This document shows, one piece after another, positions 6,874 through 60,027 of a stretch of DNA of 64,000 nt (within the stretch, counting starts at the first letter, position 1; each line of letters opens with the position of its first letter). The notes below the pieces were generated by a model. The model had not been told where the DNA came from. It ran no database searches and was given only the letters and a program-made list of their open reading frames with translations. This stretch comes from a virus. Its lineage: Duplodnaviria > Heunggongvirae > Uroviricota > Caudoviricetes. The DNA lies in the IMG/VR virus record IMGVR_UViG_3300028048_000043; one strand, given 5' to 3'. Position numbers and translations under genes: made by a program.

Positions 6874-8775
6874 ATGAACAAAATTATCGGTATTGACCTC
6901 GGCAGCACAATGAGTGCTGTCGCGGTTGTTGAACAGGGGAAGCCACAAATTATTGTGAACAATGACGGAGACAGAACTACACCGTCCGTCATCGGGTACT
7001 CTAATGATGGAGAGGTAAAGGTTGGAAATTCAGCAAAGCGTTCAGCCGTTGTCAATCCAAAAACTACTATTGAGGTTATCAAAAGATTCATTGGTAATTC
7101 CTGGAAGAGATCCTCAAAATATGCAAAGGATTTTTCATATGATATTGTTGAGGGTCCAAATGACACAATTCGTGTAAAGATAAACGGAAAGGAATACACG
7201 CCTCAGGAAATTAGTGCAGAGGTTCTTCGCAAACTTAAAAAGTCAGCGGAAGACTATCTTGGTTCAGAAGTCAAGGAAGCCGTTATAACTGTACCGGCAT
7301 ATTTTGACGACCAGCAGAGAACAGCAACAGTTGAAGCTGCAAAAATAGCCGGACTTGAATGTAAGAGAATCATAAATGAGCCAACGGCGGCCGCTCTTGC
7401 ATTTGGTCTTGACAAACTTGACAAGGACATGAAGATTCTTGTTCTTGATTTGGGCGGAAGTACAGCTGATGTTTCAATCCTTGAATTGGGAAACGGTGTA
7501 TTTGAAGTGGTCAGTACAAACGGAGATATGATTCTTGGTGGTCGAGATCTCGATCAGTTAATTACGGATTGGATTGTCGACAAAATAAAAGAACAGTGCG
7601 GCGTCGATGTAAAGAAAGACCATATGGCATATCAGAGGGTTGTTGAGGCAGCAGAGAAGGCAAAAATAGAACTTTCTAATGTTACTTCAACAGACATCAA
7701 TCTTCCATATTTGACTGCTGTCGACGGAGTTCCTCAGCACTTTATGTCAAGTCTCACTCGCGCTCAATTCGAAAATCTTGCAGAGGGTTTCATTAAAAAG
7801 GTTGAAAATCTTTGTAAAGGTGCTTTGGAATCGGCAAAAATGAACATCAACGATATAGACGAAGTTCTTCTCGTTGGAGGAACAACAAGGGTTCCTAAAG
7901 TTCAGCAATTCGTTAGAGATTATTTTAAGAAGGAACCTAACAAATCCGTTAATCCGGATGAGGCTGTTGCTCTCGGAGCTGCAATTCAAGGTGCTATCCT
8001 TGCTGGAGATCTCGGAGACGATATTGTTCTTCTTGATGTCACTCCTCTAAACTTAAATATAACAACTCTCGGTGATGTTGCTACAACAATGATTGAAGCA
8101 AACACTACTATTCCTGTTTCGAAGGAACATATTTTCACAACAGCTGAAGATAACCAACCGGCAATAACCGTTGTCGTTACTCAGGGAAACAGAAAGATTG
8201 CAAGTGAGAATAAAAAGCTCGGAGAGTTTAATCTTGATGGAATAGCTCCTGCTAGAAGAGGTGTTCCGCAGATCAAAGTAAAATTTGATCTTGATACAAA
8301 TGGAATACTTAAAGTTACTGCAACCGACACGGCAACAGGAAAAGAACAGTTTATAAGAATAGAGGGGTCATCTAATCTTGATGATTCTGAAATCGACAGA
8401 ATGAGGAAAGATGCTGAGTTGCATGAAGCAGAAGATAAAGCAAGAGTTGAGAAGCAGAATAAACTTAACGACGCAGAATCTCTCATATTTGCCACAGAGC
8501 GTCAGTTATCTGACCAAGGAGACAAGATCTCCGACAATCTGAAGAAAGATATAGCAGAAAAATTAAATGCCTTAAAAGCTGTTTATAACGTTAAACCTGA
8601 GGATAGGGACATCGATGCTATTGAAAAGGCAACAAACGTTTTAAGAGAAGCTGTATACAAGGCTAGTGAGGAACTCTATAAATCTTCTTCAACTGATTCG
8701 TCTTCCGGACAGAATCCATTCTCGAATTTTGATTTCGCAAATGGTGGATTTCCTGGTGGAAATCCGACGAAATGA
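6874..8775 (+). CDS. dnaK: Hsp70 chaperone DnaK
   Basis: [40 protein letters not shown] signatures; 633 aa with GGFPGG C-terminus. Confidence 0.9.
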
Positions 8776-8848: not shown

Positions 8849-9100
8849 ATGCTTTTTAAATTAAAACTTATAATCCAAGGATGGTTTAATTGGATTCTTG
8901 ATAAAGTGTCTGACATTAAATATAAAGAGTATTTTGATGCCAGATATGAGATTTGTAAATGCTGTGAGCATAATAAGTTTGGAATCTGTGATTGTTGCGG
9001 ATGTGTGCTTAAAGCAAAAACAAAAGCAGAAGAATCCGAATGTCCGGTTGGAAAATGGAAAACAATAAAGGAAACGTTAGATGAAAAAGTTAAAGCTTAA
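8849..9100 (+). CDS. Cys-rich small protein (putative Zn-binding)
   Basis: CKCCEHNKFGICDCCGC...ECPVGKW. Confidence 0.45.
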   Translation: MLFKLKLIIQGWFNWILDKVSDIKYKEYFDARYEICKCCEHNKFGICDCCGCVLKAKTKAEESECPVGKWKTIKETLDEKVKA

Positions 9101-10937
9101 TGTGCATATCCTTTATCCTGGTGGGTTTAAACCGATACATGAGGGTCACATGTTTCTTATTGAAAACGCAATAAAGTCCGTTAAGGCTACATTTGGTCCA
9201 AGTAACGTGGATCCGAAGGTTCATATTATATTGTCGAATAAAAGCAGAGACGGTGTTACAGCCGAAACGACAGCAAGATATCTTGACAGTATAGGTATAG
9301 GAAAATATGGAATAGATTACATTATTTGCGACGGAAGTCCTGTCAGAAAAGCTTATAATATTGTAGCAACAAAAGAATACGGTAACGGATACTACTACAT
9401 ACTGTCGTCGAAGAAAGATTCAGATATAGATCGTTGTATGGATTTTGTTGATGCGTTTAAGATTGGTGGAAAGTATTATACAGAAGGCGCAACTGTGATG
9501 TACTGCCCTCCGTCAGCACCAATGAAATATGCATGGAGGAATGACGATAAGAACGGAGAAATTATATCATCTAGAATCGTTCGTCAGGATGCAATAAACA
9601 GCGATTATGAAAACTTTGAAAAGGCGTATTTGCATCCATATTTTTCCGATAAAACTCTTCTCGGTCGTTATTATATATGGATAAAGAGAGATATGGAGAA
9701 TTCTGGATTGTTTGAAGGCGCTGCCGCTGGGCACATAAACCACCCATATGAAGAAGATTACCTAACGTTTGCAGAAATAAGCGATATGATACGAGATGTA
9801 TTTTCCGGATCCATAGAAGATATGACTGAAAAGATTGACGGTATGAATATAATGGCGTCCGTTGATACACGAGGGAGAGCAATTTTTGCAAGAAACAAGT
9901 CGCAGTTAACCGATTATCCAATGACACTCGATGACATACGTTCAAACAAGCAGAGTTGGTCGAAAGGAATATTGGCTTCGTTTGTTAAAGGAGCAGAAAC
10001 AATCGCTGCGATATTCAAGAATATAAAAGACGCGAAGTCAGTTTTCAATGAAGACGATAAGTTGGATGGAGTTAGATATAGAACGTGGTGCAATTTTGAA
10101 ATAACTGATACAGCTTCACAAAATGTTATTCCATATACTGAGAATATAATATCATTAAATGGTTTTATTACGGCTTGTCTCAATTACGGGATAGACAAAG
10201 AGGGAGAGTGGGAAATATTTGAGCCTCACGAATCAAACGTTAACAGGATTAAACCTGTTGTTATTGATGCGATGAAGAAGACAAATGAAACTTATTTTAA
10301 GGTAAAACTCCCTCAGAATGTATTCTTAGCTCAGGCTGAAGCTGAGCGCGAAGTCATATTAAGAAAATATCAAGAAATGCTTGAGGAACTTTGTGAGGAT
10401 TATAATCTTACGATGGATAGCAATATTAGAATGTTTAAGCGCGAATCTCTTAAAAGATATCTTGTAAACAACGGGTTTAGTGACTTCAGTGATGAAGAAA
10501 TAGATCGTATGGCTGAAATGGTTTTAGGACAAATTCGCCTTTCTATAATGGCTTTTCCTGAAAACGAAAGAAAACGAATAGTAGATTTCAGAAAAAATAA
10601 GGAAAAGGATGTTCTAAAGAGAATAATGCTTCCAATCGATAAATTCTTTATAGACTTTGGAAACGATGTAATCAAATGCTGTAAAGGCATTCAGAATGAA
10701 GGAAATGAAAAAGAAATCGTAGCAAAAATAAAGAAAGGTGTAGTCGACGCAATCGATTCTATTACCAAATCAAACGATGAGCGGAAAATCGATAAACTCG
10801 AATATCTTCTTATACGATTAGGAAATGATCCAGAGATTTATCCAAGCGAAGGTATAGTTTACACTTATAAAGGAAGGAAATATAAGCTGACTGGAAGTTT
10901 TGCGGCATTGAATCAAATAAAGAATCTTCTTAAATAA
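9081..10937 (+). CDS. HIGH-motif nucleotidyltransferase domain fused to putative KxDG ligase (Rnl2-like) domain
   Basis: N-terminal PGGFKPIHEGH matches (T/H)xGH cytidylyltransferase-superfamily motif (NMNAT/PPAT-like); downstream EKIDGMNIMASVD resembles Rnl2 motif I KIHGTN. Confidence 0.5.
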   Translation: MKKLKLNVHILYPGGFKPIHEGHMFLIENAIKSVKATFGPSNVDPKVHIILSNKSRDGVTAETTARYLDSIGIGKYGIDYIICDGSPVRKAYNIVATKEYGNGYYYILSSKKDSDIDRCMDFVDAFKIGGKYYTEGATVMYCPPSAPMKYAWRNDDKNGEIISSRIVRQDAINSDYENFEKAYLHPYFSDKTLLGRYYIWIKRDMENSGLFEGAAAGHINHPYEEDYLTFAEISDMIRDVFSGSIEDMTEKIDGMNIMASVDTRGRAIFARNKSQLTDYPMTLDDIRSNKQSWSKGILASFVKGAETIAAIFKNIKDAKSVFNEDDKLDGVRYRTWCNFEITDTASQNVIPYTENIISLNGFITACLNYGIDKEGEWEIFEPHESNVNRIKPVVIDAMKKTNETYFKVKLPQNVFLAQAEAEREVILRKYQEMLEELCEDYNLTMDSNIRMFKRESLKRYLVNNGFSDFSDEEIDRMAEMVLGQIRLSIMAFPENERKRIVDFRKNKEKDVLKRIMLPIDKFFIDFGNDVIKCCKGIQNEGNEKEIVAKIKKGVVDAIDSITKSNDERKIDKLEYLLIRLGNDPEIYPSEGIVYTYKGRKYKLTGSFAALNQIKNLLK

Positions 10938-28326: not shown

Positions 28327-28572
28327 TTACCATTCGTTTGATTTTAACGTCGTTGGTGGAAGATTTGATATCCATTCCTGAAGGGATCCTTTTGTTTTGT
28401 TAGCTTTCTCTCTGTTCCAATAATCTGGGCAATAGCTGTCAAATTTACAATTATTCTTGCAAAGACACCAGCAGTTTCCTTCTATATTTCTTGCCATCTT
28501 CAAATCAAACTTAGTTGGTTCCCACCACCAACATTTATAACACATTCCGTGATTTGCCATTATATTTCCCAT
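28327..28572 (-). CDS. Cys/Trp-rich small protein
   Basis: CYKCWWWEP...CWCLCKNNCKFDSYCPDYW. Confidence 0.4.
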   Translation of the reverse strand: MGNIMANHGMCYKCWWWEPTKFDLKMARNIEGNCWCLCKNNCKFDSYCPDYWNREKANKTKGSLQEWISNLPPTTLKSNEW

Positions 28573-34205: not shown

Positions 34206-34574
34206 TTACATTTCTACTTTTATGCTTTTTAGAGGGTGTTTTGTTCCAAGTTTTTCTGAGAAATCGCAATCCCAGTTTATGCAGCGCCTCCCGAAATACT
34301 GAACAATCTTGTAATCGAATGTATCTTCGTCGTCGCAGAGATCTCCGCCGTGAAATCTGTACTTCTTTCCGCAGTATGGGCACTCAAAAACACCCATACG
34401 ATGACCAAGATTTGTTTCGCACCAACCGAGTATTCTTGGCTCGGATTTAGGAACTTTTGTTCCGTTTTGAAGAAATCCTGATTCGCCACATTCAGGACAA
34501 ACATAATCCGGAGCGTACTCAATATCATCATATTGAGCAAACTTATGACTTATGTCTATGAATCTTTTTTCCAT
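34206..34574 (-). CDS. Zn-ribbon protein
   Basis: CPECGESG...CPYCGKKY. Confidence 0.4.
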   Translation of the reverse strand: MEKRFIDISHKFAQYDDIEYAPDYVCPECGESGFLQNGTKVPKSEPRILGWCETNLGHRMGVFECPYCGKKYRFHGGDLCDDEDTFDYKIVQYFGRRCINWDCDFSEKLGTKHPLKSIKVEM

Positions 34575-35900: not shown

Positions 35901-36734
35901 TCAAAATTTGAACGCTTCCTTCATAAACCTTTCTCGATTTTCATCAAGAGTTAAATCAAATGCAGGAATAACTGTAAATTTCGATCGAGTGAAAGTTATA
36001 GGTGCATTAGACTGTGGAATAAGTCTACTCTCTGTTGTTTCTTTCTTATATACGAATCGACCGAACCTATACTGATCGGCGAACGCACACCAATCTACAC
36101 CAGATTTTGCTTTACATAGTTCAACTTGTTCATCTGTATTTCTACTCATAAGATCCTTAGGAGAAAGATATGTCTGAGCAGTCTGCTGCTTAGAGTTCCT
36201 GATGCAGTCGATTTGGCGGTACAGGAACCAAGCATACACGTCGTTTTTATTTGGAACGACCCAGACTTTACAGTCGAATTGGGCTAGTTTCATTTTATTG
36301 ATTTCGTCATACACTTCCGCAAACGTAACATCTACATCTCCGCTATCAACAAACTTGTTTGAAAGTTTATTCAGTATGAATTGTCTGTTGAATTCGCTGG
36401 TTGCTAACGAAGCTAAAATAGACTGAAGTTTGCACAATCTTCCACCAAATGGAGTGTCGGTTTCCTGTGTATCATAATCTGTTATGAGAAGACTTATCTC
36501 GTCGCTCTGCGTATATGCAAATTTAACTCCCTGAACGTTATTGCACAGGAATTTTGCCGTTTTGTTCATCATATCGATGAAATCATCATCGAACGGTTTT
36601 TTGAAATGATTCTTCACGAGCGTACTGAAGTTCTTTCCGTCAAGCATAACAAGAATGTTACTGTTCGGGAGAATCCTGTAATCAGTAAGATCTCTATAAT
36701 AATTACACTTTTCTTTGAGGTTTTTGAAATTCAT
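35901..36734 (-). CDS. Thg1-like protein (tRNA-His guanylyltransferase family 3'-5' nucleotidyltransferase)
   Basis: ILVMLDGKNFSTLVKNHFKKPFDDDF matches Thg1 VVVRLDGRNFHRF..KP.D; FAYTQSDEISLL matches metal-binding IAYGQSDEYSFV; KLQSILASLATSEF matches KFMTHVASQFASSY. Confidence 0.65.
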   Translation of the reverse strand: MNFKNLKEKCNYYRDLTDYRILPNSNILVMLDGKNFSTLVKNHFKKPFDDDFIDMMNKTAKFLCNNVQGVKFAYTQSDEISLLITDYDTQETDTPFGGRLCKLQSILASLATSEFNRQFILNKLSNKFVDSGDVDVTFAEVYDEINKMKLAQFDCKVWVVPNKNDVYAWFLYRQIDCIRNSKQQTAQTYLSPKDLMSRNTDEQVELCKAKSGVDWCAFADQYRFGRFVYKKETTESRLIPQSNAPITFTRSKFTVIPAFDLTLDENRERFMKEAFKF

Positions 36735-36778: not shown

Positions 36779-37012
36779 CTATTGTTGCTCTGTCGTTATC
36801 TTTTCTTTTCCGCCCCATCCGATTCTTCTTATCCGTAGCGAACTTTTTGTATAATATGAATAGCACTCCGGGCAGGTTATATATTCTTTGTATGTTTGAT
36901 GATCCGTTTGAAACTCGTTCTCAAGAAATTCACAAACACATCCACATCTACATTTTAATCTGTATTTCCTTTCGAGTGCTTCAGGACCTTTACCGTGTTT
37001 AATAATTTCCAT
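36779..37012 (-). CDS. Zn-ribbon small protein
   Basis: CRCGC...CPEC. Confidence 0.4.
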   Translation of the reverse strand: MEIIKHGKGPEALERKYRLKCRCGCVCEFLENEFQTDHQTYKEYITCPECYSYYTKSSLRIRRIGWGGKEKITTEQQ

Positions 37013-37618: not shown

Positions 37619-37858
37619 TTAAAATTTCCAAAGAAAACTAAAATTATTTTCAGATGTCCATCGTTTAAGTATGACTTCTATTGTGTGCATTGATAGTCCG
37701 GTCTTCTTCTTTAACGATTTAAACATATCAGTTGTTGGTGATGTTAGATGGTTTATTTCTATGTAGGAGAGAAAGTTATATATCAGATCGTCTATTTTTA
37801 GTTCGTCAGGTATAATTGTGAGAGTGCCGCGAATTTTATCTTTGCTTATTTTGTACAT
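37619..37858 (-). CDS. small protein translationally coupled to radical SAM gene
   Basis: 79 aa; TAATATG junction with rSAM stop; possible HTH (TGLSMHTIEVILKRW). Confidence 0.4.
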   Translation of the reverse strand: MYKISKDKIRGTLTIIPDELKIDDLIYNFLSYIEINHLTSPTTDMFKSLKKKTGLSMHTIEVILKRWTSENNFSFLWKF

Positions 37859-37859
37859 A

Positions 37860-38708
37860 TTAGTCTGTTCTTACAAGAAGTTTTCTATCTTTATTGTTTT
37901 TAAACATCATAGTTTGATAACATTTTGCACAATTAGGTATAAATGCGTTATAGAACTTCATGTTAAATTCCTTGAATCTCTTGTCGAATCCGCCATCAAG
38001 ATAATCAGATATGTTTGCATATTGAAGCACTCCCATATCACATTTGTATATGTCACCATCCTCATCAATAAGGAATGTATATAAAGACTCTGGTTTCTGA
38101 CAGTAACACCCAAAGAAACTATAAATCCCGTTAGATGAAAACGCGCTTCTTCCAATCGGTACTATTCCACTTTCACTTAAATAGTTTATATCAGGAATGT
38201 TATATTTTGCACCCATCTTTTCAAGAAGTTCTCCAGCTTTATCCACATTTTTATTTGTGTGCCATTTATCCCTTGAAATCGATATGTTTATTTTATCTCC
38301 ACAGTTTATGACGAGTCGCTGAAGTTTTGCTTGAACAGAAATATTGTTAGCCCAGTCTCCATTGCTGACAATTCTTGCGTGTTTACAGGAATCTATAAGA
38401 ATTGTAAATATTTCATACCAGTCAGGGTTACAGAAAAATTCTCCTCCCATAAGGTTAATACTTACGACGTCGTTGTTTTTGATGAATTGAGCAATCTCCT
38501 TTGCCCTGTCTATGCTCATCATTATTTTGCTTTCTGGAGACGAATTGAAGCAGCAATGGGAACATTTTTGTGTACATTTATTCGTTATCCTTATTGTCCA
38601 ATGAAGAAACCGCATGCACTCGTTTGCTAATTTACAAGTGTTGCAGTTACAGTCGTGTTTTCCTTTACAAGTTTCCTCTACACAAATGTTGCAAGGAGGT
38701 TTTCTCAT
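37860..38708 (-). CDS. radical SAM enzyme with N-terminal Cys-rich extension and C-terminal twitch/SPASM-like motif (paralog 1)
   Basis: CTQKCSHC (Cx3Cx2C), NLMGGEFF (GGE motif), C-x14-G-x4-C then CAKC at C-terminus; N-terminal CNICVEETCKGKHDCNCNTCKLANEC. Confidence 0.7.
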   Translation of the reverse strand: MRKPPCNICVEETCKGKHDCNCNTCKLANECMRFLHWTIRITNKCTQKCSHCCFNSSPESKIMMSIDRAKEIAQFIKNNDVVSINLMGGEFFCNPDWYEIFTILIDSCKHARIVSNGDWANNISVQAKLQRLVINCGDKINISISRDKWHTNKNVDKAGELLEKMGAKYNIPDINYLSESGIVPIGRSAFSSNGIYSFFGCYCQKPESLYTFLIDEDGDIYKCDMGVLQYANISDYLDGGFDKRFKEFNMKFYNAFIPNCAKCYQTMMFKNNKDRKLLVRTD

Positions 38709-39049
38709 TACTGTCTGTTCTTTAACTCTTCCTTTATTCGTTTTTGAAAAGCGATCATGTCGCTTTCTGTTCTGAAGCAGAGGAATCCATTCATAACCTT
38801 ATCGTGATAATGAACGATCCCTTCCTTTGTCAAGAGATAGTCATCCTCTTTTATCTGATCCTGATGGCATTCGTATGTCCATAAGGTGACTTCAAAGTTC
38901 GTCTTTAAAGCATCCTTTATCGTTTGACAAATTGATTCTCTCTTTACATCATACACGCGTTTCTCTCCTTCTTGTGGAGGACCAAGATATTCATCAAGTC
39001 TCTCCTTATATGTTTTTGCTTCTTTCATAATTAATCTATTCCCATCCAA
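38708..39049 (-). CDS. hypothetical protein, ATGA-coupled upstream of rSAM
   Basis: 113-aa ORF. Confidence 0.4.
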   Translation of the reverse strand: MDGNRLIMKEAKTYKERLDEYLGPPQEGEKRVYDVKRESICQTIKDALKTNFEVTLWTYECHQDQIKEDDYLLTKEGIVHYHDKVMNGFLCFRTESDMIAFQKRIKEELKNRQ

Positions 39050-45294: not shown

Positions 45295-46239
45295 TTATTC
45301 CTCTTCTTTTTCTCGAACCTGAACTATTACATCTGTATCGTTTTTGAATTTATCAAAAAGTTTTTCCTCGATTCCTGGAGTTTTTACATATGATGTGAAT
45401 GCACTTGTATATACCGTTCCTTCAACGGTTATTCCTTTTTCAGCTTGCTCCTGCTTTCCGGCGATTTTTCCAAGATTGTAATAATGCTTTGCGATTGCGG
45501 AATGTGTTCGGTCATCAAGAATCTCATACATATTATTAAAAGGAATATGCGATCCATATCTTTCTATTTCACGCTCAAGACTGTCCGATTCATTATATGT
45601 TTTAAGATCTGTTTTGAAATGATAACCAGATTCATCAACAACTGCGTCTCCATGAACTTCCGGATAGAAAGTTGTTTTTGGTTCTCTGTATTTTTTATCA
45701 AAGTTCCATTTCTTTAGATAATCAAATTTTTGTTCTTTTGTTTCTGATTTTTCTAATCCTTCACCAGCCGTTCTAAGATAATCTTCAAGTCGTTCTGCTG
45801 CCTGCTGAGGAGTATGACCATCCCATTTATTCGCGACAACTTTTTCAGGAATATTGAAAAGATTCCAATACTTCATTTCATAATGGTTGGAAATCTGTCC
45901 CGTTGGAAGTTCAGCCATAACGATAAACCATCCGCCTCCGAAACATTCTTCGCCGTCGTTGTGTCTCTTACTTTTATGTACGTCATATTCAACTTCCCAT
46001 GATCCGTCAGCCCAACTGTCATAATTTGCAAGGGAATTAAAGAATGCGGCATTATACAGCATCCTATAATTGTAAAGCTCATTAAACGTATGATATCCGT
46101 CCGATATTTCTCCTTTATCGGTCGGTTCGTTTTCCATTTTTTCTGCAAAAGAAATCAGTTTATCAAGACTAGGAGTAGCTATTGGTTGCCACTTCTTCAA
46201 TTCTTCAACCTTCTCTTTCAGTTTTTCAAGATCTATCAT
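45295..46239 (-). CDS. hypothetical protein
   Basis: 314-aa ORF. Confidence 0.45.
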   Translation of the reverse strand: MIDLEKLKEKVEELKKWQPIATPSLDKLISFAEKMENEPTDKGEISDGYHTFNELYNYRMLYNAAFFNSLANYDSWADGSWEVEYDVHKSKRHNDGEECFGGGWFIVMAELPTGQISNHYEMKYWNLFNIPEKVVANKWDGHTPQQAAERLEDYLRTAGEGLEKSETKEQKFDYLKKWNFDKKYREPKTTFYPEVHGDAVVDESGYHFKTDLKTYNESDSLEREIERYGSHIPFNNMYEILDDRTHSAIAKHYYNLGKIAGKQEQAEKGITVEGTVYTSAFTSYVKTPGIEEKLFDKFKNDTDVIVQVREKEEE

Positions 46240-47300: not shown

Positions 47301-47582
47301 TTATCCTGTATAAAAATCTGTGTAATAACTCCAAACTTCCTGGTTTGTTTTCTTGTCTATGATCCTGTGATCCAGAGTATATGAATTACTCTCATATGCA
47401 TACCTGTCATTCTCCCCGGTTCTCCACCAATGTGAATCATTGGGATATGGTTGATACGGTTTCTCAATGACTGCCAGAGAGTCACAAACCTTTATCATTT
47501 TTTCATAAGACAATCTTTTCATATTAAAATAACTTTTTACAATTCCAGTCACTAATCTTTTTGGATATAAGTTCCAAAACAA
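47301..47582 (-). CDS. hypothetical protein
   Basis: 93-aa ORF. Confidence 0.35.
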   Translation of the reverse strand: MFWNLYPKRLVTGIVKSYFNMKRLSYEKMIKVCDSLAVIEKPYQPYPNDSHWWRTGENDRYAYESNSYTLDHRIIDKKTNQEVWSYYTDFYTG

Positions 47583-47733
47583 TTATACCACACAAATAAA
47601 CCACTAATAAAATTGTAAATATTCCAATATGAACAATTATATCCTGTTGTATACTATATCTCGGAAGGATAAAATATATTGCAAGTCCATAGATGATAAT
47701 ACCTATAAAAAACAATATGTCTCTTCTAATCAT
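47524..47733 (-). CDS. small membrane protein immediately downstream of rSAM paralog 2
   Basis: 69 aa, 2 TM helices, overlaps rSAM stop. Confidence 0.4.
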   Translation of the reverse strand: MIRRDILFFIGIIIYGLAIYFILPRYSIQQDIIVHIGIFTILLVVYLCGIIVLELISKKISDWNCKKLF

Positions 47734-48565
47734 AATCTACTATAAATTCAGGTTTCTGTGATGATATAAAGTTATAACAGGATTGACAAGATGAGATGAA
47801 TACAGAATAGAATTTACTGTTTGTTTCTTTGAACTTCTGTCTGAATCCTCCTTCAAGATATTCATCAACATGTGCATAACACAGGACACCGAATGAACAC
47901 TTGAAAATATTTCCTTTTTCATCAATAAGGAAAGAATACTTATTTTTAGGATTCTGACAGTAACATCCCATCATATCATAAAGTCCACTGATGTACTTAC
48001 CATTTGCCCTACCAACAGGGACAATAGACTGATCGGTTGTCTGATCTTCTGTTGCCACTTTGACAATCGCCCCTATATCTTCAAGGAATGCCTTTGCAGC
48101 ATCCACATTCTTGTTTGTATGCCACTTGTCCTTTGATATACAGAAGTAAATCTGCTTATTGAACAGTGATACCAATGTCATCAGCTGGGTCTTTACTTTC
48201 ATATTGTTCACCCAGTCACCATTTGTCACCAGTCTGGCATATTTTACAGATGAGATGAGGGCACTATATATCTCAAACCAGTCGGGATTGCAGAAGAACT
48301 CTCCACCCATAAGGTTGATACTCTCTATGTCATTACTTTTCAAGAACTTTGCAATTTCTTTTGCTTTCTCCACAGTCATCATAATGTTTGACTTTGGAGA
48401 AGACATAAAGCAACAGTGACCGCACTCCTGGGTACATCTGTTGGTGATTCTGATAGTTGCATGAAGTTTTCTGTAACACTTATCTTTCAGTTGACAAGCA
48501 TCACAATGACAATTATGAGCGCCTTTGCAGGTTTCTTCTAAACATATATCACAAGGACTTGACAT
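47726..48565 (-). CDS. radical SAM enzyme with N-terminal Cys-rich extension and C-terminal twitch/SPASM-like motif (paralog 2)
   Basis: CTQECGHC, NLMGGEFF, GCYCQ...C-x-G-x4-C, about 50% identity to 37860-38708 across full length. Confidence 0.7.
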   Translation of the reverse strand: MSSPCDICLEETCKGAHNCHCDACQLKDKCYRKLHATIRITNRCTQECGHCCFMSSPKSNIMMTVEKAKEIAKFLKSNDIESINLMGGEFFCNPDWFEIYSALISSVKYARLVTNGDWVNNMKVKTQLMTLVSLFNKQIYFCISKDKWHTNKNVDAAKAFLEDIGAIVKVATEDQTTDQSIVPVGRANGKYISGLYDMMGCYCQNPKNKYSFLIDEKGNIFKCSFGVLCYAHVDEYLEGGFRQKFKETNSKFYSVFISSCQSCYNFISSQKPEFIVDYD

Positions 48566-49880: not shown

Positions 49881-50558
49881 CTATTCAAGTTTTTTACATT
49901 CTTCTTCAGTATACATAGAATGGAGTTTTTCAATCCACCACTTGGTCTTGATTTTAACAGAAGGTCTCCTCTGTCCCTTGAGTAAAGTTGATCTCTTGAA
50001 CACAACACCTTCCTTTACTTTTGAGTTCCAGCAATCGGGTTGAGTCCAGTCATTTCCCTGGATCTTTGAAATGATGTCTGCGTCAAGTACACCTGAATAA
50101 ATCAAATCAGGCATCTCAATCCCAGAATTCCTGAAACACATTTCATAGTTCTTTGGTTCAATATAACCTTTCTTCTTCAGGAATACATCAATGAGTGCAA
50201 GATGCATTTCATCTCCATCCTGGTGTTTACCGGCGAAAGAATTCCAACCATACCACTCAGATACAAATGTCACTTCATCAACACCAGTAAAGACATCTCC
50301 CTTTCCGGAATAGTCTTTTACAATCTTTGCAATTATTTCAGGATAATTGGAATTTTTGAACCACTTGACCACCTGTCCAAACTGTTCAGAATTCTCATCA
50401 ACAGTGACTGTCCTGGATCCAAATGGTCCCCAGGTTTTCTTTCTGCAATTATAGGATGCAACAAAATTCTGGCCATCAAGTTTATTATACCCGACAACCA
50501 TTTCACCTTTCAAAGAACCATCATCCTGGATTCTTGGTATGGAATCATAATGTTTCAT
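49881..50558 (-). CDS. minimal Rnl2-like RNA/DNA ligase nucleotidyltransferase domain
   Basis: motif I GYNKLDGQNF (KxDGxN, cf. T4 Rnl2 KIHGTNF), motif IV EGVVFK, motif V KIKTKWW. Confidence 0.55.
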   Translation of the reverse strand: MKHYDSIPRIQDDGSLKGEMVVGYNKLDGQNFVASYNCRKKTWGPFGSRTVTVDENSEQFGQVVKWFKNSNYPEIIAKIVKDYSGKGDVFTGVDEVTFVSEWYGWNSFAGKHQDGDEMHLALIDVFLKKKGYIEPKNYEMCFRNSGIEMPDLIYSGVLDADIISKIQGNDWTQPDCWNSKVKEGVVFKRSTLLKGQRRPSVKIKTKWWIEKLHSMYTEEECKKLE

Positions 50559-55420: not shown

Positions 55421-55831
55421 TTACAGTTTCTTAAGACAACAAACCAGACCGTATTCCATCGCATTCTCGAATCTCGGAAAAATCTCTTTCTCTATGGTCT
55501 TACCGTTATAAACGGCACCGTCGTCTTCGAGAGCCTGGATCCATTCGCTTCCGTTGTTTTTATAGAACGAAAGATAAAACCCAGTGCTGTTCGGATCGGG
55601 TCTGACATCTATGTATATCCCGAAGATTTCCGTCAGCCATGTCAACGCCCCCTGCTGCGTAGGAGCGTGAAGCATCTTCCCGTCATCGAACTTATCCCAA
55701 TGAAAAAACCTCTCGAAACACCATTCGCCGTCAGATTCATAATAATAGTATATGTAATCCGTATCGGAATCAAACCCTTTCTCTTTTAAGAGTTTGGCCG
55801 TTTTAAAACTAACGTGATTTTCGGTAATCAT
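55421..55831 (-). CDS. MITEDYVSF-family paralog A
   Basis: MITENHVSFKTAKLLKEKGFD ... EYGLVCCLKKL; GC-richer than other copies. Confidence 0.55.
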   Translation of the reverse strand: MITENHVSFKTAKLLKEKGFDSDTDYIYYYYESDGEWCFERFFHWDKFDDGKMLHAPTQQGALTWLTEIFGIYIDVRPDPNSTGFYLSFYKNNGSEWIQALEDDGAVYNGKTIEKEIFPRFENAMEYGLVCCLKKL

Positions 55832-55834
55832 ATT

Positions 55835-56185
55835 CTAAATCAATTTTTTAAGACAAAATTTGATAACAGCTTCAGCAGCATCTTCAAAAGAATGATATGC
55901 CATGTCGCTCTCTATTTTCTCACCACGATAAAGGATTATATATTGATAATAGTCCCAAAAAGTATTATAGTGTACTTCAACGTGCAAATTATGAACTTTC
56001 CTCAACCACTTCATTGTCATTTGAAGAGTTGGGTCGGAATATCGACGTCCAATATTCCAATTCCAATCAGCCTCCTTTCTATTAAACTTTCCTTCATTGT
56101 CATAAAACGAAGATACATACACATCAAACCCTTTCTCTTTCAGGAGCTTAGCCGTACCAAAGCTAACATAATCATCTGTAATCAT
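55835..56185 (-). CDS. MITEDYVSF-family paralog B
   Basis: MITDDYVSFGTAKLLKEKGFD ... PTLQMTMKWLRK ... AEAVIKFCLKKLI. Confidence 0.55.
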   Translation of the reverse strand: MITDDYVSFGTAKLLKEKGFDVYVSSFYDNEGKFNRKEADWNWNIGRRYSDPTLQMTMKWLRKVHNLHVEVHYNTFWDYYQYIILYRGEKIESDMAYHSFEDAAEAVIKFCLKKLI

Positions 56186-56268
56186 ATTGTTTTTTCCTCA
56201 AACATTTTTATATGCCTTGATTTAATACCAAAAAAGCGATCAACACTCCTTCCAAGTTCATTCCATTT

Positions 56269-56346
56269 TTAATTGAAGAAGAAAAAGAACGGCAGTCCTA
56301 CAATGCAAATAATCGTAACCACAATGTAATAAACTACTTTTTTCAT
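56269..56346 (-). CDS. 25-aa hydrophobic micro-peptide
   Basis: MKKVVYYIVVTIICIVGLPFFFFFN; speculative. Confidence 0.25.
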   Translation of the reverse strand: MKKVVYYIVVTIICIVGLPFFFFFN

Positions 56347-56351
56347 ATCTT

Positions 56352-56624
56352 TTATATTACGGTGAACATTGTATTAGACCAATAAAACACATCTCTGTCT
56401 TCTTTTATATGATAGATGTAATTATCACATGGTTTGGGGTAGTTAGATGTGAATACATTTCCATGTTTATCCATATGCCCTATGTAAGAAATGGTTACTT
56501 CTTTTCCACCAAACTTGTCTATCATTTCTTGTGTTAAACCAAATAGGTGTTTATATTTTGTTTCATGACCAATCACTCTTACTTTCTGCCCCACTTGGAA
56601 CATTGCATCATTTATCTTTTCCAT
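56352..56624 (-). CDS. hypothetical protein
   Basis: 90-aa ORF. Confidence 0.4.
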   Translation of the reverse strand: MEKINDAMFQVGQKVRVIGHETKYKHLFGLTQEMIDKFGGKEVTISYIGHMDKHGNVFTSNYPKPCDNYIYHIKEDRDVFYWSNTMFTVI

Positions 56625-56629
56625 AGTCC

Positions 56630-56989
56630 CTAGATCAATTTTTCAAGACAATATTTTATTGTCGATTCGCAGGCTTCTTCGAATGAATCAAACCCATTTC
56701 CACCAATTTTATTTTTATCTGATTCAACCTTAATGTCTTTACTATTACAAATAAATTGAACAGTTGGCATATAGTTTTTTGAACCGATACAGTCTACCAT
56801 TATATGAAGATTATGCTGATTTCTCAACCACTTCATTGCTGTTTGAAGAGTTGGTGCATATACACCATCAGGTGACTCCTGATCATAATCAGGTTCAGGA
56901 TAAAACCTATTTGATTCACAATTCCAGTCAAACCCCTTTTCTTTAAGAAGCTCTGCAATTTCAAGACTAACGTAATCTTCAGTAATCAT
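56630..56989 (-). CDS. MITEDYVSF-family paralog C
   Basis: MITEDYVSLEIAELLKEKGFD ... PTLQTAMKWLRN ... EACESTIKYCLEKLI. Confidence 0.55.
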   Translation of the reverse strand: MITEDYVSLEIAELLKEKGFDWNCESNRFYPEPDYDQESPDGVYAPTLQTAMKWLRNQHNLHIMVDCIGSKNYMPTVQFICNSKDIKVESDKNKIGGNGFDSFEEACESTIKYCLEKLI

Positions 56990-56992
56990 AAT

Positions 56993-57298
56993 CTATTTTT
57001 CTACATCAAACAACATATCTTCTGTAACGTCATATCCTCCATCCAAGTCCACACATTCAATATCAAAAGGATTTTCACACTCTTTGATTCTCTGGATAAA
57101 CATCTGCTTCAGCTCATCTATCCTATCCTTTGTGAAATACTTTTCCGTCACCAATGATGCCTGATTGTCTATGTCATTAGCATCATCAGGAAACGGCTTG
57201 GTATATACAGTTATATCATCATCTATCAAATGAGGCTTAAGAGCACATACGAATTTAAAGACATCGTTATCTACATATTTTTTACAATCCTTTTTCAT
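56993..57298 (-). CDS. hypothetical acidic protein
   Basis: 101-aa ORF; preceded by decayed paralog N-terminus. Confidence 0.4.
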   Translation of the reverse strand: MKKDCKKYVDNDVFKFVCALKPHLIDDDITVYTKPFPDDANDIDNQASLVTEKYFTKDRIDELKQMFIQRIKECENPFDIECVDLDGGYDVTEDMLFDVEK

Positions 57299-57402
57299 AT
57301 CCTATAAAAAATTTTTGCCAAATCATATAAGCAAGCACACGTTTCATTAACCCATTTCAAGAGTTTTGCGGTTTAAAAGCTAACACAATATTCAGTCATC
57401 AT
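57299..57402 (-). pseudogene. decayed N-terminal remnant of a MITEDYVSF-family gene
   Basis: minus strand reads MMTEYCVSF*TAKLLKWVNE (cf. MITEDYVSFETAKLLKEKGFDE) with in-frame stop. Confidence 0.45.
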
Positions 57403-57776
57403 ATCAAATTTTCAAGGCAATATTTTATTGCTGCTTCACACGCCCCCTCTTGATTTTCATAAACCCATCCTTGAGAATAAACATCATTGTGTTTTGCAAC
57501 AACGATTTCAACCTTCCACAAAAACTTCTCTTTATCGAGTACACTACTCAGGACAGGTATAACAGCAATACCTTTCTTTTCCCTCAACCACTTCATTGCC
57601 ATTTGAATAGTTGGTGCTAGGATAGCATTATGCATTTCACATCCAGATGCTTCAACCTCATATTTTTCATAACTAAAAGAACCAGCGCTCCCATAATGAG
57701 CTCTACATCCTTCATCAAACCCCTTTTCCTTAAGGAGTTTTGCTGTTTCGAAGCTTACGTAATCTTCTGTTATCAT
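57399..57776 (-). CDS. MITEDYVSF-family paralog D
   Basis: start placed at MITEDY (57776) rather than the upstream Met at 57800 given by the ORF track; PTIQMAMKWLREK ... CEAAIKYCLENLI. Confidence 0.55.
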   Translation of the reverse strand: MITEDYVSFETAKLLKEKGFDEGCRAHYGSAGSFSYEKYEVEASGCEMHNAILAPTIQMAMKWLREKKGIAVIPVLSSVLDKEKFLWKVEIVVAKHNDVYSQGWVYENQEGACEAAIKYCLENLI

Positions 57777-57777
57777 A

Positions 57778-58032
57778 TTACTGTTTGTTTTTATGTTCAT
57801 ACCAAATGTAACGGAGTCTTGCTAATATACTGCGTTCGTGTAATGATCCGCATAATGGGCACTTGCAATATTTGCGAGGAGAAACGTACGAGAAAAAATC
57901 GTTAGGATAATCGGCAACAAAAGTTGTTTTGCTATAATTAAATCCATTTTCTTCCTTTTTACAAGTCTTACATACAAACATGTATTTTTTACTCTTTGTC
58001 TTTTTTGGTGGAACGGTTTTTACTATTTCCAT
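57778..58032 (-). CDS. Zn-ribbon small protein
   Basis: CKTCKK ... CKCPLCG. Confidence 0.4.
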   Translation of the reverse strand: MEIVKTVPPKKTKSKKYMFVCKTCKKEENGFNYSKTTFVADYPNDFFSYVSPRKYCKCPLCGSLHERSILARLRYIWYEHKNKQ

Positions 58033-58047
58033 AATCTAAATCAAATT

Positions 58048-58290
58048 TTAAAGATATATTCCAAAAGGGCTCCATCCATAAGGAAGAATCATATATTCTT
58101 CTGGATTCTTGTGCGAGTCTTCTGTTACCTTCAACCAAATCTCCCTCTCTTTTTGTGCTTTAAGGAATTTTGCATTATCTTTAATCCTGCGTTTCTTTAA
58201 AGCTTCATTCCGACGGATTTTTTCGTTTTCTTCTTGTATATCGACAATTGCTGTTGCTATATCGACAATTAAACTAAATGAATTAAACAT
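58048..58290 (-). CDS. hypothetical protein
   Basis: 80-aa ORF, basic. Confidence 0.35.
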   Translation of the reverse strand: MFNSFSLIVDIATAIVDIQEENEKIRRNEALKKRRIKDNAKFLKAQKEREIWLKVTEDSHKNPEEYMILPYGWSPFGIYL

Positions 58291-58716
58291 CTAGATCAAA
58301 TTTTCAAGACAGTACTTTATTGCTGCTTCACAAGCTTGTTCATAAGTCTTGTAAATAGCATCAGACTCATCTTTGATCAAACTGCATCCTTTGGAATGAT
58401 ATTCAATCCTGTACCACCAATCATTACTTTCTTGAATTGCGTCATGGAATGGATAGATTTCAAGATAAAAAGTATTCCTCAACCACTTCATAGCCATTTG
58501 AAGAGTTGGTGTGGAACAGTAAACAATGTGCCCATATGGTTTATTTTCTAATTCACTATTAGTTAGCATTAAATTAGCAGATATAAATAATTCTTCCTCA
58601 TCTACTATTTTATTGTTGACTAATTTTTTTCTATAAGAGCATTGGCATTTCTCATCAAACCCCTTTTCTTTCAGGAGTTTTGCAACTTCAAAAGAAACGT
58701 AATCTTCCGTAATCAT
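58291..58716 (-). CDS. MITEDYVSF-family paralog E
   Basis: MITEDYVSFEVAKLLKEKGFDE ... PTLQMAMKWLRN ... EQACEAAIKYCLENLI. Confidence 0.55.
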   Translation of the reverse strand: MITEDYVSFEVAKLLKEKGFDEKCQCSYRKKLVNNKIVDEEELFISANLMLTNSELENKPYGHIVYCSTPTLQMAMKWLRNTFYLEIYPFHDAIQESNDWWYRIEYHSKGCSLIKDESDAIYKTYEQACEAAIKYCLENLI

Positions 58717-58718
58717 AA

Positions 58719-58940
58719 CTAATCGTTTTTACATTTTGCTAACAAAGCCCTGATTGCCTTGTAAAGGCGCCTTATAAATTTAACTGGGAACAAAATTGCC
58801 CAGAAGGAAATGATGAGGACAAACATATTTTTATCATCCTCCGACATATCTGGAGGAGTCGGAATATTATGGATTGCACAATAGATACAGGCAAAAACAA
58901 ACCCAATTACTAAATAAAGTAAGATTAGTAAAATTACCAT
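58719..58940 (-). CDS. small membrane protein
   Basis: 73 aa, 2 TM helices. Confidence 0.4.
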   Translation of the reverse strand: MVILLILLYLVIGFVFACIYCAIHNIPTPPDMSEDDKNMFVLIISFWAILFPVKFIRRLYKAIRALLAKCKND

Positions 58941-58943
58941 ATT

Positions 58944-59351
58944 TTAAATCAAATTTTCAAGACAATATTTTATAGCAACTTCGCAGGCTTCTTCATAAGT
59001 GTTAAAATTTTTTGGAAAACCGTTTTTGTGAGCTAATGGATTTAGTTCTTCAATAGTTGCTGCTTTATGTATGAGAGAATTTCCTGATTTAGTTTCAAGA
59101 ACATATACATAATAGCGAGGATGATATATTTCAGGATTTTCAGAAAATGTTAAATTTACTTCAATATATAGGTTATATTTCTCCCTCAACCACTTCATTG
59201 CCATTTGAAGAGTTGGAGCAACTGGTCCATAACAATATCCACTACATAAATCTCCCTGTGTGTTATACTGCTTATGGCAACCAAATTGTTCAAACCCCTT
59301 CTCTTTCAAGAGTAGTGCCGTTTCAAAGCTAACATAATCTTCCGTAATCAT
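58944..59351 (-). CDS. MITEDYVSF-family paralog F
   Basis: MITEDYVSFETALLLKEKGFEQ ... PTLQMAMKWLREK ... EEACEVAIKYCLENLI. Confidence 0.55.
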   Translation of the reverse strand: MITEDYVSFETALLLKEKGFEQFGCHKQYNTQGDLCSGYCYGPVAPTLQMAMKWLREKYNLYIEVNLTFSENPEIYHPRYYVYVLETKSGNSLIHKAATIEELNPLAHKNGFPKNFNTYEEACEVAIKYCLENLI

Positions 59352-59362
59352 AACAATTTTTA

Positions 59363-59554
59363 CTAGCAGTTAATTCTTATAGCATATCCTTTGCTGACAT
59401 ATTCTTCAAACTGTTCCTGTGTAACATCAGCATCTTCCCATGTGACGGGGTATCCTGACGGGGTTGATAAATCATCGCCTTCTCTTAAACACCTTCTATC
59501 ATGTTCATGCATCATTTTCGCCCAAGAGTAATCCTTGCTAAATTTAATTTTCAT
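59363..59554 (-). CDS. hypothetical protein
   Basis: 63-aa ORF. Confidence 0.35.
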   Translation of the reverse strand: MKIKFSKDYSWAKMMHEHDRRCLREGDDLSTPSGYPVTWEDADVTQEQFEEYVSKGYAIRINC

Positions 59555-59556
59555 AA

Positions 59557-60027
59557 CTAAATCAAATTTTCAAGACAATACTTAATGGCTGCTTCGCATG
59601 CTTTTTCATAAGGAATGTGTTCGGCTTCATGCCTTTTCCACCTATCTGTAAAAATGGTTGTTTTAACAGCCCACCCATAATGCCACTCTAAATCCTCATT
59701 GGAATCTCCTGTGCAAATTGGGTTAAGTTCTATATGAATGTTATGTTTCTCTCTCAACCACTTCATTGCCGCCCACAATGTTGGAGCCGCCCACACTTTA
59801 CCGTCTTCATCACTATTGCTACAGTTAAAATAGTATAATGCACCACCCTCTACATACTCAATTTCATTCTCCATGCCTTCATCTTTAAGATCACATTCTT
59901 CATCGAAGCTGATATTCTCTCCATTATGAAGTACAGCAACACCGTAGCAGCACCGACACCATTCCTTAAACCCTTTTTCTTTTAAGAGTTTTGCCGTTTC
60001 AAAACTAACGTAGTCTTCGGTAATCAT
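59557..60027 (-). CDS. MITEDYVSF-family paralog G
   Basis: MITEDYVSFETAKLLKEKGFKE ... PTLWAAMKWLREK ... EKACEAAIKYCLENLI. Confidence 0.55.
   Translation of the reverse strand: MITEDYVSFETAKLLKEKGFKEWCRCCYGVAVLHNGENISFDEECDLKDEGMENEIEYVEGGALYYFNCSNSDEDGKVWAAPTLWAAMKWLREKHNIHIELNPICTGDSNEDLEWHYGWAVKTTIFTDRWKRHEAEHIPYEKACEAAIKYCLENLI

Follow-up and report, generated by a model that had tools for sequence, protein, structure and literature searches.

The 64,000-nucleotide stretch analyzed here (the window; IMG/VR virus record IMGVR_UViG_3300028048_000043), part of a 313.6-kb metagenome contig, carries a gene for a radical S-adenosylmethionine (SAM) enzyme of 282 amino acids (aa), hereafter copy 1. 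Our analysis places copy 1 in an unnamed family that is restricted almost wholly to very large phage contigs. The reading we favor, to which we give a probability of roughly 0.4, is that copy 1 is a stand-alone, trans-acting radical SAM (rSAM) enzyme with a twitch-type auxiliary domain that acts on the translation apparatus, most likely on tRNA. An rSAM enzyme with an auxiliary cluster is unsurprising in itself, because such enzymes are common and many phages encode rSAM genes, as seen in a BFVD search. An earlier note on this DNA, made from the sequence, had called the combination uncommon in a virus, which does not sit well with the approximately 165,000 of 570,000 rSAM genes that have SPASM or twitch domains (PMC9012708). 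What makes the enzyme noteworthy is the presumed metal module of seven cysteines at the N terminus (Cys7), the near-exclusive presence of the family on very large phage contigs, and its recurring association with tRNA and RNA-repair genes.

Copy 1 shows the features of the radical SAM superfamily, namely a CX3CX2C motif, a GGE element, a match to Pfam PF04055 over aa 40-143 whose 41.8 bits exceed the gathering threshold of 29.5, and a partial TIM-barrel fold in an AlphaFold2 (AF2) model (predicted local distance difference test score [pLDDT] 92.9, predicted template modeling score [pTM] 0.90). A further cysteine, C53, directly follows CX3CX2C within the sequence HCCFxSSP, and the enzyme YydG has CDHCCFSSSP at the aligned site. 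The motifs listed in the earlier note (CTQKCSHC, NLMGGEFF, and C-x14-G-x4-C followed by CxxC) can all be read in the gene and are conserved across 117 homologues. All seven N-terminal cysteines, C45, C49 and C52 of the radical SAM motif, and C203, C223, C260 and C263 near the C terminus are invariant in a 26-sequence alignment, in which C201 is almost invariant; in the 117 sequences the same cysteine sites are invariant or at least 90% conserved, and GGE is invariant in both sets. The cysteine motifs of this family are not chance features.

Twitch is a shortened form of the SPASM domain with one auxiliary cluster, marked by a C-x9-15-G-x4-C hairpin plus further cysteines (PMC9012708). Copy 1 has this arrangement in C203-x14-G218-x4-C223 and C260-x2-C263, and its C-terminal domain is structurally similar to those of solved twitch enzymes. 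A fold comparison of copy 1 gave values of 15.9 for SkfB, 14.9 for YydG/EpeE, 13.9 for SuiB, 13.2 each for ChlB and BlsE, 12.7 each for anSME and viperin, 12.6 for PqqE, 12.5 for SpeY, 12.3 for BtrN, 11.6 for MoaA, 7.6 for LipA, 6.8 for MiaB, 6.6 for QueE, and 6.5 for RlmN, which places its fold in the SPASM/twitch class. A full SPASM domain would possess seven or eight cysteines and two clusters; four or five C-terminal cysteines are conserved in this family, without CX2CX5CX3C, and because only four of them are invariant copy 1 is assigned as twitch rather than full SPASM. Searches with the SPASM models PF13186 and TIGR04085 gave no match at E<=0.1, and across Pfam and NCBIfam no SPASM, twitch, RRE, PqqD, QueE, or NrdG model fitted copy 1. 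Neither the C-terminal sequence alone nor a C-terminal profile found a twitch or SPASM match by sequence in the PDB. The twitch assignment is made on motif and fold, not on a profile match, and of the twitch/SPASM-like C terminus proposed in the earlier note it is the twitch part that has held up. The note had also named an outcome that would speak against its proposal, placement in a family such as QueE or NrdG with C-terminal cysteines foreign to twitch spacing; neither family fits, and the twitch spacing does. A single, fully cysteine-ligated auxiliary cluster is predicted in this domain. The best NCBIfam matches were YydG (2e-16) and AlbA (5e-15), both limited to the core and far under their cut-offs, and a family profile run against PDB sequences found YydG/EpeE as the best match (E=4e-19), with the next at 2e-7 and viperin at 5e-5.

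The cysteines of the Cys7 module occupy positions 6, 9, 14, 20, 22, 25, and 31. Their 2-4-5-1-2-5 spacing is shared by 90 of 115 distinct N termini, with variation almost wholly in the third gap, and a divergent member (locus L030) retains the first four cysteines only. No Pfam or NCBIfam match was found to these residues, and a profile of the N-terminal region gave zero matches among PDB sequences. The earlier note had set this stretch apart from RRE/PqqD-like domains, and we agree: it is conserved, has no RRE match, and has no known counterpart. AF2 modeled it at pLDDT 80-88. Compact rSAM-plus-twitch proteins of 240-270 aa make up sister families, equally unnamed, that keep the twitch motif and lack the Cys7 module; the module is therefore an add-on specific to the clade of copy 1. 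Two sister-family members that were sampled come from contigs of 166 and 273 kb whose gene content is phage-like. The module most likely binds a third metal center, and its seven thiolates might accommodate zinc or, alternatively, a [4Fe-4S] cluster along with a further site. It sits where the leader-binding (RRE) domains of peptide maturases are found and so could be a docking or electron-entry module. The C9-x4-C14-x5-C20 spacing equals that of the LipA auxiliary-cluster motif, CX4CX5C, which is likewise N-terminal to the radical SAM motif, a resemblance that the fold does not support.

Homologues were recovered in 216 clusters (90% identity) at E<=1e-3 among 5.8 billion proteins, none of them informatively named, and with a profile 65 clusters (50% identity) were retrieved from 1.84 billion representatives at E<=1e-30. 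The family is unnamed in Pfam, NCBIfam, PHROGs (which has no specific family for copy 1), and PADLOC, and our literature searches found no description of it; BFVD holds no close structure for copy 1 (best template modeling score <=0.55). Protein cluster searches traced the family to contigs of up to 388 kb, and IMG/VR contributes 33 loci on viral contigs of 23-501 kb, only one of which is shorter than 90 kb. Among 185,579 species genomes (one genome per species) only 3 members were found, two on single contigs of 363-371 kb labeled as metagenome-assembled genomes, of which the one of 363 kb is likewise listed in IMG/VR as a viral contig, and the third on a 2.9-kb contig. GenBank phages contribute one unannotated relative of 462 kb, with no tRNA gene within 20 kb. 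Nearly all the long contigs that bear the family measure 90-500 kb, which is jumbo-phage size.

Gene calling has contributed to the obscurity of the family. The public record of copy 1 starts late and gives a protein of 219 aa, and an exact look-up of the 282-aa protein therefore had no match. Met63/64 is often chosen as the start by gene callers in this family (e.g., L034, positions 10001-10660), and about 28 of the 150 best representatives begin at profile position 62-63. Such a start removes both the Cys7 module and CX3CX2C, leaving products without a Pfam match and hiding the family in public annotation.

The evidence for a function in translation comes from the genomic neighborhood. In 27 lineages retained after dereplication at 75% identity, a same-strand tRNA gene lies within 4 kb of the rSAM gene in 10; the distance is no more than 1.3 kb in 8 lineages and no more than 150 bp in 4, giving a binomial P of 4e-7 to 4e-3 for a background that was assumed at 5-15%, not measured; the Hsp70 gene of the window, used as a control, yielded 5 loci, too few for a baseline. 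Some copies lie inside tRNA arrays, and at L035, the locus of the closest full-length homologue (58% identity), the rSAM gene stands among 31 tRNAs and a transfer-messenger RNA (tmRNA). Sister-family loci are tRNA-proximal too. Genes for enzymes of RNA repair and tRNA maturation recur as well. The window encodes a Thg1-like tRNA-His guanylyltransferase and an RNA ligase (Table 1), this ligase (PF09414) or a relative of it occurs within a few genes of the rSAM gene in the copy-2 lineage (the window, L004, and L006) and in L023, and a PF09414 gene lies two genes after it in L047. L009 and L013 encode a CCA-adding enzyme close to the rSAM gene. Among 148 dereplicated neighbors surveyed with Pfam, there were also SmpB, peptidyl-tRNA hydrolase (Pth), deformylase (Def), FolE2, and a deaminase, and motif searches among the neighbors did not place Pth, Def, or SmpB at particular loci. 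The tRNA arrays, RNA ligase, CCA-adding enzyme, Thg1, SmpB/tmRNA, Pth, and Def together point to the translation apparatus, and most likely tRNA, as the target. Among the three candidate roles offered in the earlier note, it is nucleic-acid or tRNA modification that gains support from this neighborhood.

Several features of these phages touch on translation more generally. Thg1 and the RNA ligase suggest a capacity for tRNA repair in the phage of the window, which has no tRNA gene within its 64 kb; an Rfam scan of the whole window likewise gave no matches. Suppressor tRNAs with a CTA anticodon are encoded in related jumbo phages (L035, 8944-9015; L037, 451-528), as is a tmRNA with the tag GNNTYAIAA (L035, 16264-16665), hinting at TAG recoding and phage-encoded ribosome rescue. 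On a 4.7-kb contig, P0101, a 327-aa product joins an rSAM sequence up to "GNIF" with the C-terminal part of SmpB; it is a chimera created by assembly or by a deletion, or else it attests to neighboring rSAM and smpB genes in that phage.

A number of observations weigh against a role in translation. No tRNA lies within 4 kb in 17 of the 27 lineages, among them the window and LR756500.1, the latter with none over +-20 kb either. The background rate used above is an assumption, and the proximity may reflect no more than a genome region in which accessory genes and tRNA arrays both reside. The family has a near-neutral isoelectric point of approximately 7.2, atypical for RNA-binding enzymes, all of its nearest relatives modify peptides or small molecules, and to our knowledge no twitch or SPASM enzyme acts on RNA. 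The neighbors also include genes related to nucleotide metabolism and ADP-ribosylation, namely ThyX, a dCMP deaminase-type domain, NADAR, and an ADP-ribosyltransferase (ART). A NADAR gene directly follows a sister-family rSAM gene (L049/L050, 8913-9503) and lies four genes after a main-family one (L048, 12729-13223), and ART-PolyVal ADP-ribosyltransferase domains are found among the neighbors.

A plausible mechanism can be outlined, in which we infer metal occupancy, cluster roles, and substrate. In a YydG/SkfB-like partial TIM-barrel core, the [4Fe-4S] cluster held by C45, C49, and C52 would reductively cleave SAM, and the resulting 5'-deoxyadenosyl radical would abstract a hydrogen atom from a substrate supplied in trans. 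Four-cysteine twitch clusters such as that of BtrN have been proposed to act as electron acceptors or relays, while the three-cysteine cluster of MoaA binds substrate at an open Fe site (PMC9012708). The twitch cluster of copy 1, on C203, C223, C260, and C263, would be expected to donate an electron to the substrate radical or accept one from it, and not to bind substrate. The Cys7 center may join the twitch cluster in electron shuttling, and in place of an RRE the module would provide docking or electron entry. Going by context, a substrate that is RNA or another part of the translation apparatus is a tentative assignment, and RNA specifically a rather doubtful one. If the substrate were RNA, copy 1 might introduce or restore a modification on a base or ribose, e.g., to sustain translation under host defenses that target tRNA. 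It is a long shot, though not an idle one, that this would be the first twitch rSAM enzyme to act on tRNA or another translation RNA, with three metal centers and encoded beside tRNA arrays and repair enzymes. Were it so, large phages would hold an unrecognized radical enzyme for translation maintenance, and twitch rSAM chemistry would extend to RNA.

The relatives of copy 1 suggest a different substrate. By both sequence and structure the closest are maturases of proteins and of peptides that are made on ribosomes and modified after translation (RiPPs), HCCFxSSP, NGxW, and SxDxxH are common to the family and YydG, and peptides are the substrate of most characterized SPASM/twitch enzymes (PMC5682303). 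Copy 1 could accordingly be a trans-acting modifier like YydG/EpeE or SkfB, directed at a phage or host protein encoded elsewhere, abstracting a C-alpha or side-chain hydrogen to yield an epimerized residue, a thioether, or a C-C crosslink while the twitch cluster recycles the radical; the many small Cys-rich proteins encoded in the window would offer candidates. We regard this as possible but somewhat unlikely, as Pfam and NCBIfam detect no RRE or leader-binding domain, no precursor, protease, or transporter genes are conserved nearby, and the position of the YydG hydrogen-donor cysteine, Cys223, is variable in the family, in a part where the alignment is weak. The YydG model TIGR04078 also scores only 60 bits against a cut-off of 300, and epipeptide loci are restricted to Bacillota (PMC13012085). 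Unlikely, in our estimate, is a twitch enzyme of the BtrN, SpeY, BlsE, MoaA, or viperin type that alters a small molecule, nucleotide, or sugar for DNA or RNA precursor modification or for counter-defense. Profile matches to such enzymes are limited to the rSAM core and far under cut-offs, no pathway genes are conserved beside the family, and YydG is a far better sequence match than viperin.

The earlier note had linked copy 1 to the small open reading frames (ORFs) on either side, which raises a RiPP-like cassette in which the rSAM enzyme matures one or both of them. Tight junctions and the kinship of copy 1 with RiPP maturases would favor this. The junction with the 79-aa downstream ORF is TAATATG, as that note had read it; the upstream junction, given there as an ATGA overlap with a 113-aa ORF, is TAATG, with stop and start overlapping by 1 nt. 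For the upstream ORF, ATG at 39028 gives 106 aa and lies 2 nt past the preceding gene, a TTG start gives 113 aa, and 106 aa, the length also returned by a second pipeline, is the more plausible. Such tight junctions are the norm throughout the window and represent ordinary phage gene packing. When the genes lying +-4 to 10 kb around the rSAM gene in 28 lineages were compared all against all, no neighbor family was common to more than 4; copy 1 is a stand-alone gene without a conserved partner. Neither Pfam, PHROG, nor PADLOC gave a match to the 79-aa ORF, and none of the other rSAM loci has a homologue of it; the 106-aa ORF has no family match, and its sole homologue, in L001, is 2.7 kb from the rSAM gene there. 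Both are singleton clusters, and with 0 and 3 cysteines, respectively, they are neither Cys-rich nor leader/core-like. Single-sequence AF2 models the 79-aa ORF as a three-helix bundle (pLDDT 78) whose top Foldseek matches are all homeodomains, none significant (E>=0.08); the helix-turn-helix suspected in the earlier note is possible from this model, without a significant match behind it. Moreover, tRNA genes flank the rSAM gene at approximately 20-120 bp in L002, L003, L005, L007, L008, and L032, in several lineages on both sides, leaving no space for a precursor gene. With flanking ORFs that are not conserved and tRNAs that abut the rSAM gene, maturation of these ORFs is very improbable and close to refuted.

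Table 1. Coordinates of copy 1, its motifs, and neighboring features in the window.
Feature	Coordinates	Strand	Evidence or remarks
rSAM copy 1, 282 aa, unnamed jumbo-phage rSAM family	37860..38708	(-)	ORF call and sequence
CX3CX2C (CTQKCSHC, aa 45-52; C45, C49, C52), site of radical SAM [4Fe-4S] cluster	38553..38576	(-)	
GGE (aa 88-90, in NLMGGEFF), SAM-binding element	38439..38447	(-)	reverse complement GGAGGAGAA = GGE
Twitch-type C-terminal Cys set (aa 201-263), C203-x14-G218-x4-C223 hairpin plus C260-x2-C263	37920..38108	(-)	
Cys7 module (aa 6-31), C-x2-C-x4-C-x5-C-x-C-x2-C-x5-C, putative additional Fe-S or Zn site	38616..38693	(-)	
79-aa ORF directly downstream of copy 1, orphan, not a conserved partner	37619..37858	(-)	
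106-aa ORF directly upstream of copy 1, not a conserved partner	38708..39028	(-)	
Thg1-like tRNA-His guanylyltransferase, 1.1 kb downstream of copy 1	35901..36734	(-)	PF04446 E=5e-28, phrog_4717 E=2.7e-52
rSAM copy 2, 279 aa, 56% identical to copy 1, all Cys sites kept	47726..48565	(-)	
69-aa hydrophobic ORF, probably membrane, overlapping end of copy 2	47524..47733	(-)	
RNA ligase, 1.3 kb upstream of copy 2	49881..50558	(-)	PF09414 E=2.4e-8

The label "copy 1", which we have kept from the earlier note, is justified by the paralogue, copy 2. The hydrophobic 69-aa ORF at the end of copy 2, probably a membrane protein as judged by eye, is the only neighbor kept beside this subtype and is found downstream in L004 and L006 and upstream in L009. 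A TAnnTTTG box, the motif of the -7 element of the Bacteroidota type, lies 29 nt upstream of the copy 2 ATG; scans of the window for sigma-70 promoters and for terminators gave results at or below chance level. Seven tandem paralogues of 119-156 aa (55421-60027, minus strand) have MITEDYVSFETAKLLKEKGF ... APTLQMAMKWLRE ... YExACExAIKYCLENLI in common, and their middle part varies and is often rich in cysteine. This "MITEDYVSF..." family has no Pfam match, and relatives are encoded immediately after the rSAM gene in L019 and close to it in L011 and L022; the family was considered as a multi-copy precursor set and rejected for its folded-domain appearance, its conserved N- and C-terminal helices, and its proximity to the rSAM gene in 3 lineages only. 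Small Cys-rich ORFs with 6-8 cysteines in 77-122 aa are located at 36779-37012, 28327-28572, 8849-9100, and 34206-34574, one of them two genes downstream of copy 1. Elsewhere in the window, a putative ClpX-like ATPase (565-1680) and a putative Hsp70-like chaperone (6874-8775) were recognized by eye, and 45295-46239 encodes a WDGH-domain protein (PF25311, E=4e-37). Relatives of the Hsp70 occur on 5 IMG/VR contigs, one of which also bears the rSAM locus L001.

Comparison of copy 1 with characterized rSAM enzymes shows shared architecture and significant disparities. Identity with methylthiotransferases or RlmN/Cfr was considered and rejected, as copy 1 has neither the UPF0004 and TRAM domains of the former nor the RlmN fold and catalytic Cys pair of the latter. 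QueE or NrdG identity, for which we looked for a profile match above cut-off in a protein free of the auxiliary Cys set, was likewise set aside, and so was viperin/pVip, since the PADLOC pVip match (28 bits) covers the rSAM core only and copy 1 carries the twitch Cys set. With the RNA-modifying rSAM enzymes as a whole (MiaB/MtaB/RimO, RlmN/Cfr, QueE), copy 1 has only the tRNA/translation genomic theme and a generic rSAM core in common. The small-molecule twitch dehydrogenases and decarboxylase BtrN, SpeY, and BlsE show no sequence kinship to it outside the rSAM core, are encoded in antibiotic or nucleoside biosynthetic clusters, and lack an N-terminal Cys module. SkfB (PDB 6EFN), the twitch rSAM enzyme of a RiPP operon, is 16% identical and matches through TIGR04403 at 15 bits; its solved chain of 383 residues is approximately 100 longer than copy 1, and it has an N-terminal peptide-binding domain that is absent from the family of copy 1. 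YydG/EpeE of B. subtilis (PDB 8AI1-8AI6; TIGR04078) shares GGE in addition to the three motifs named above, and its model aligns to aa 39-165 alone (60.2 bits). Its hydrogen donor is the second cysteine of GEIYPCC, which aligns to D, S, G, P, or N in the GxIYKC-[DSGPN] of the family, in a segment with a score of -2. YydG/EpeE is accompanied by the epeX precursor, the epeP protease, and an ABC transporter, none of which is conserved beside the family of copy 1, and its loci belong to Bacillota, whereas this family is phage-borne and carries the Cys7 module as an extra. Whatever its substrate, a widespread, unnamed family with an invariant seven-cysteine module of no known counterpart makes a clean target for enzymology. 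Copy 1 works like a twitch rSAM enzyme of the YydG, SkfB, or BtrN type but belongs to none of those families.

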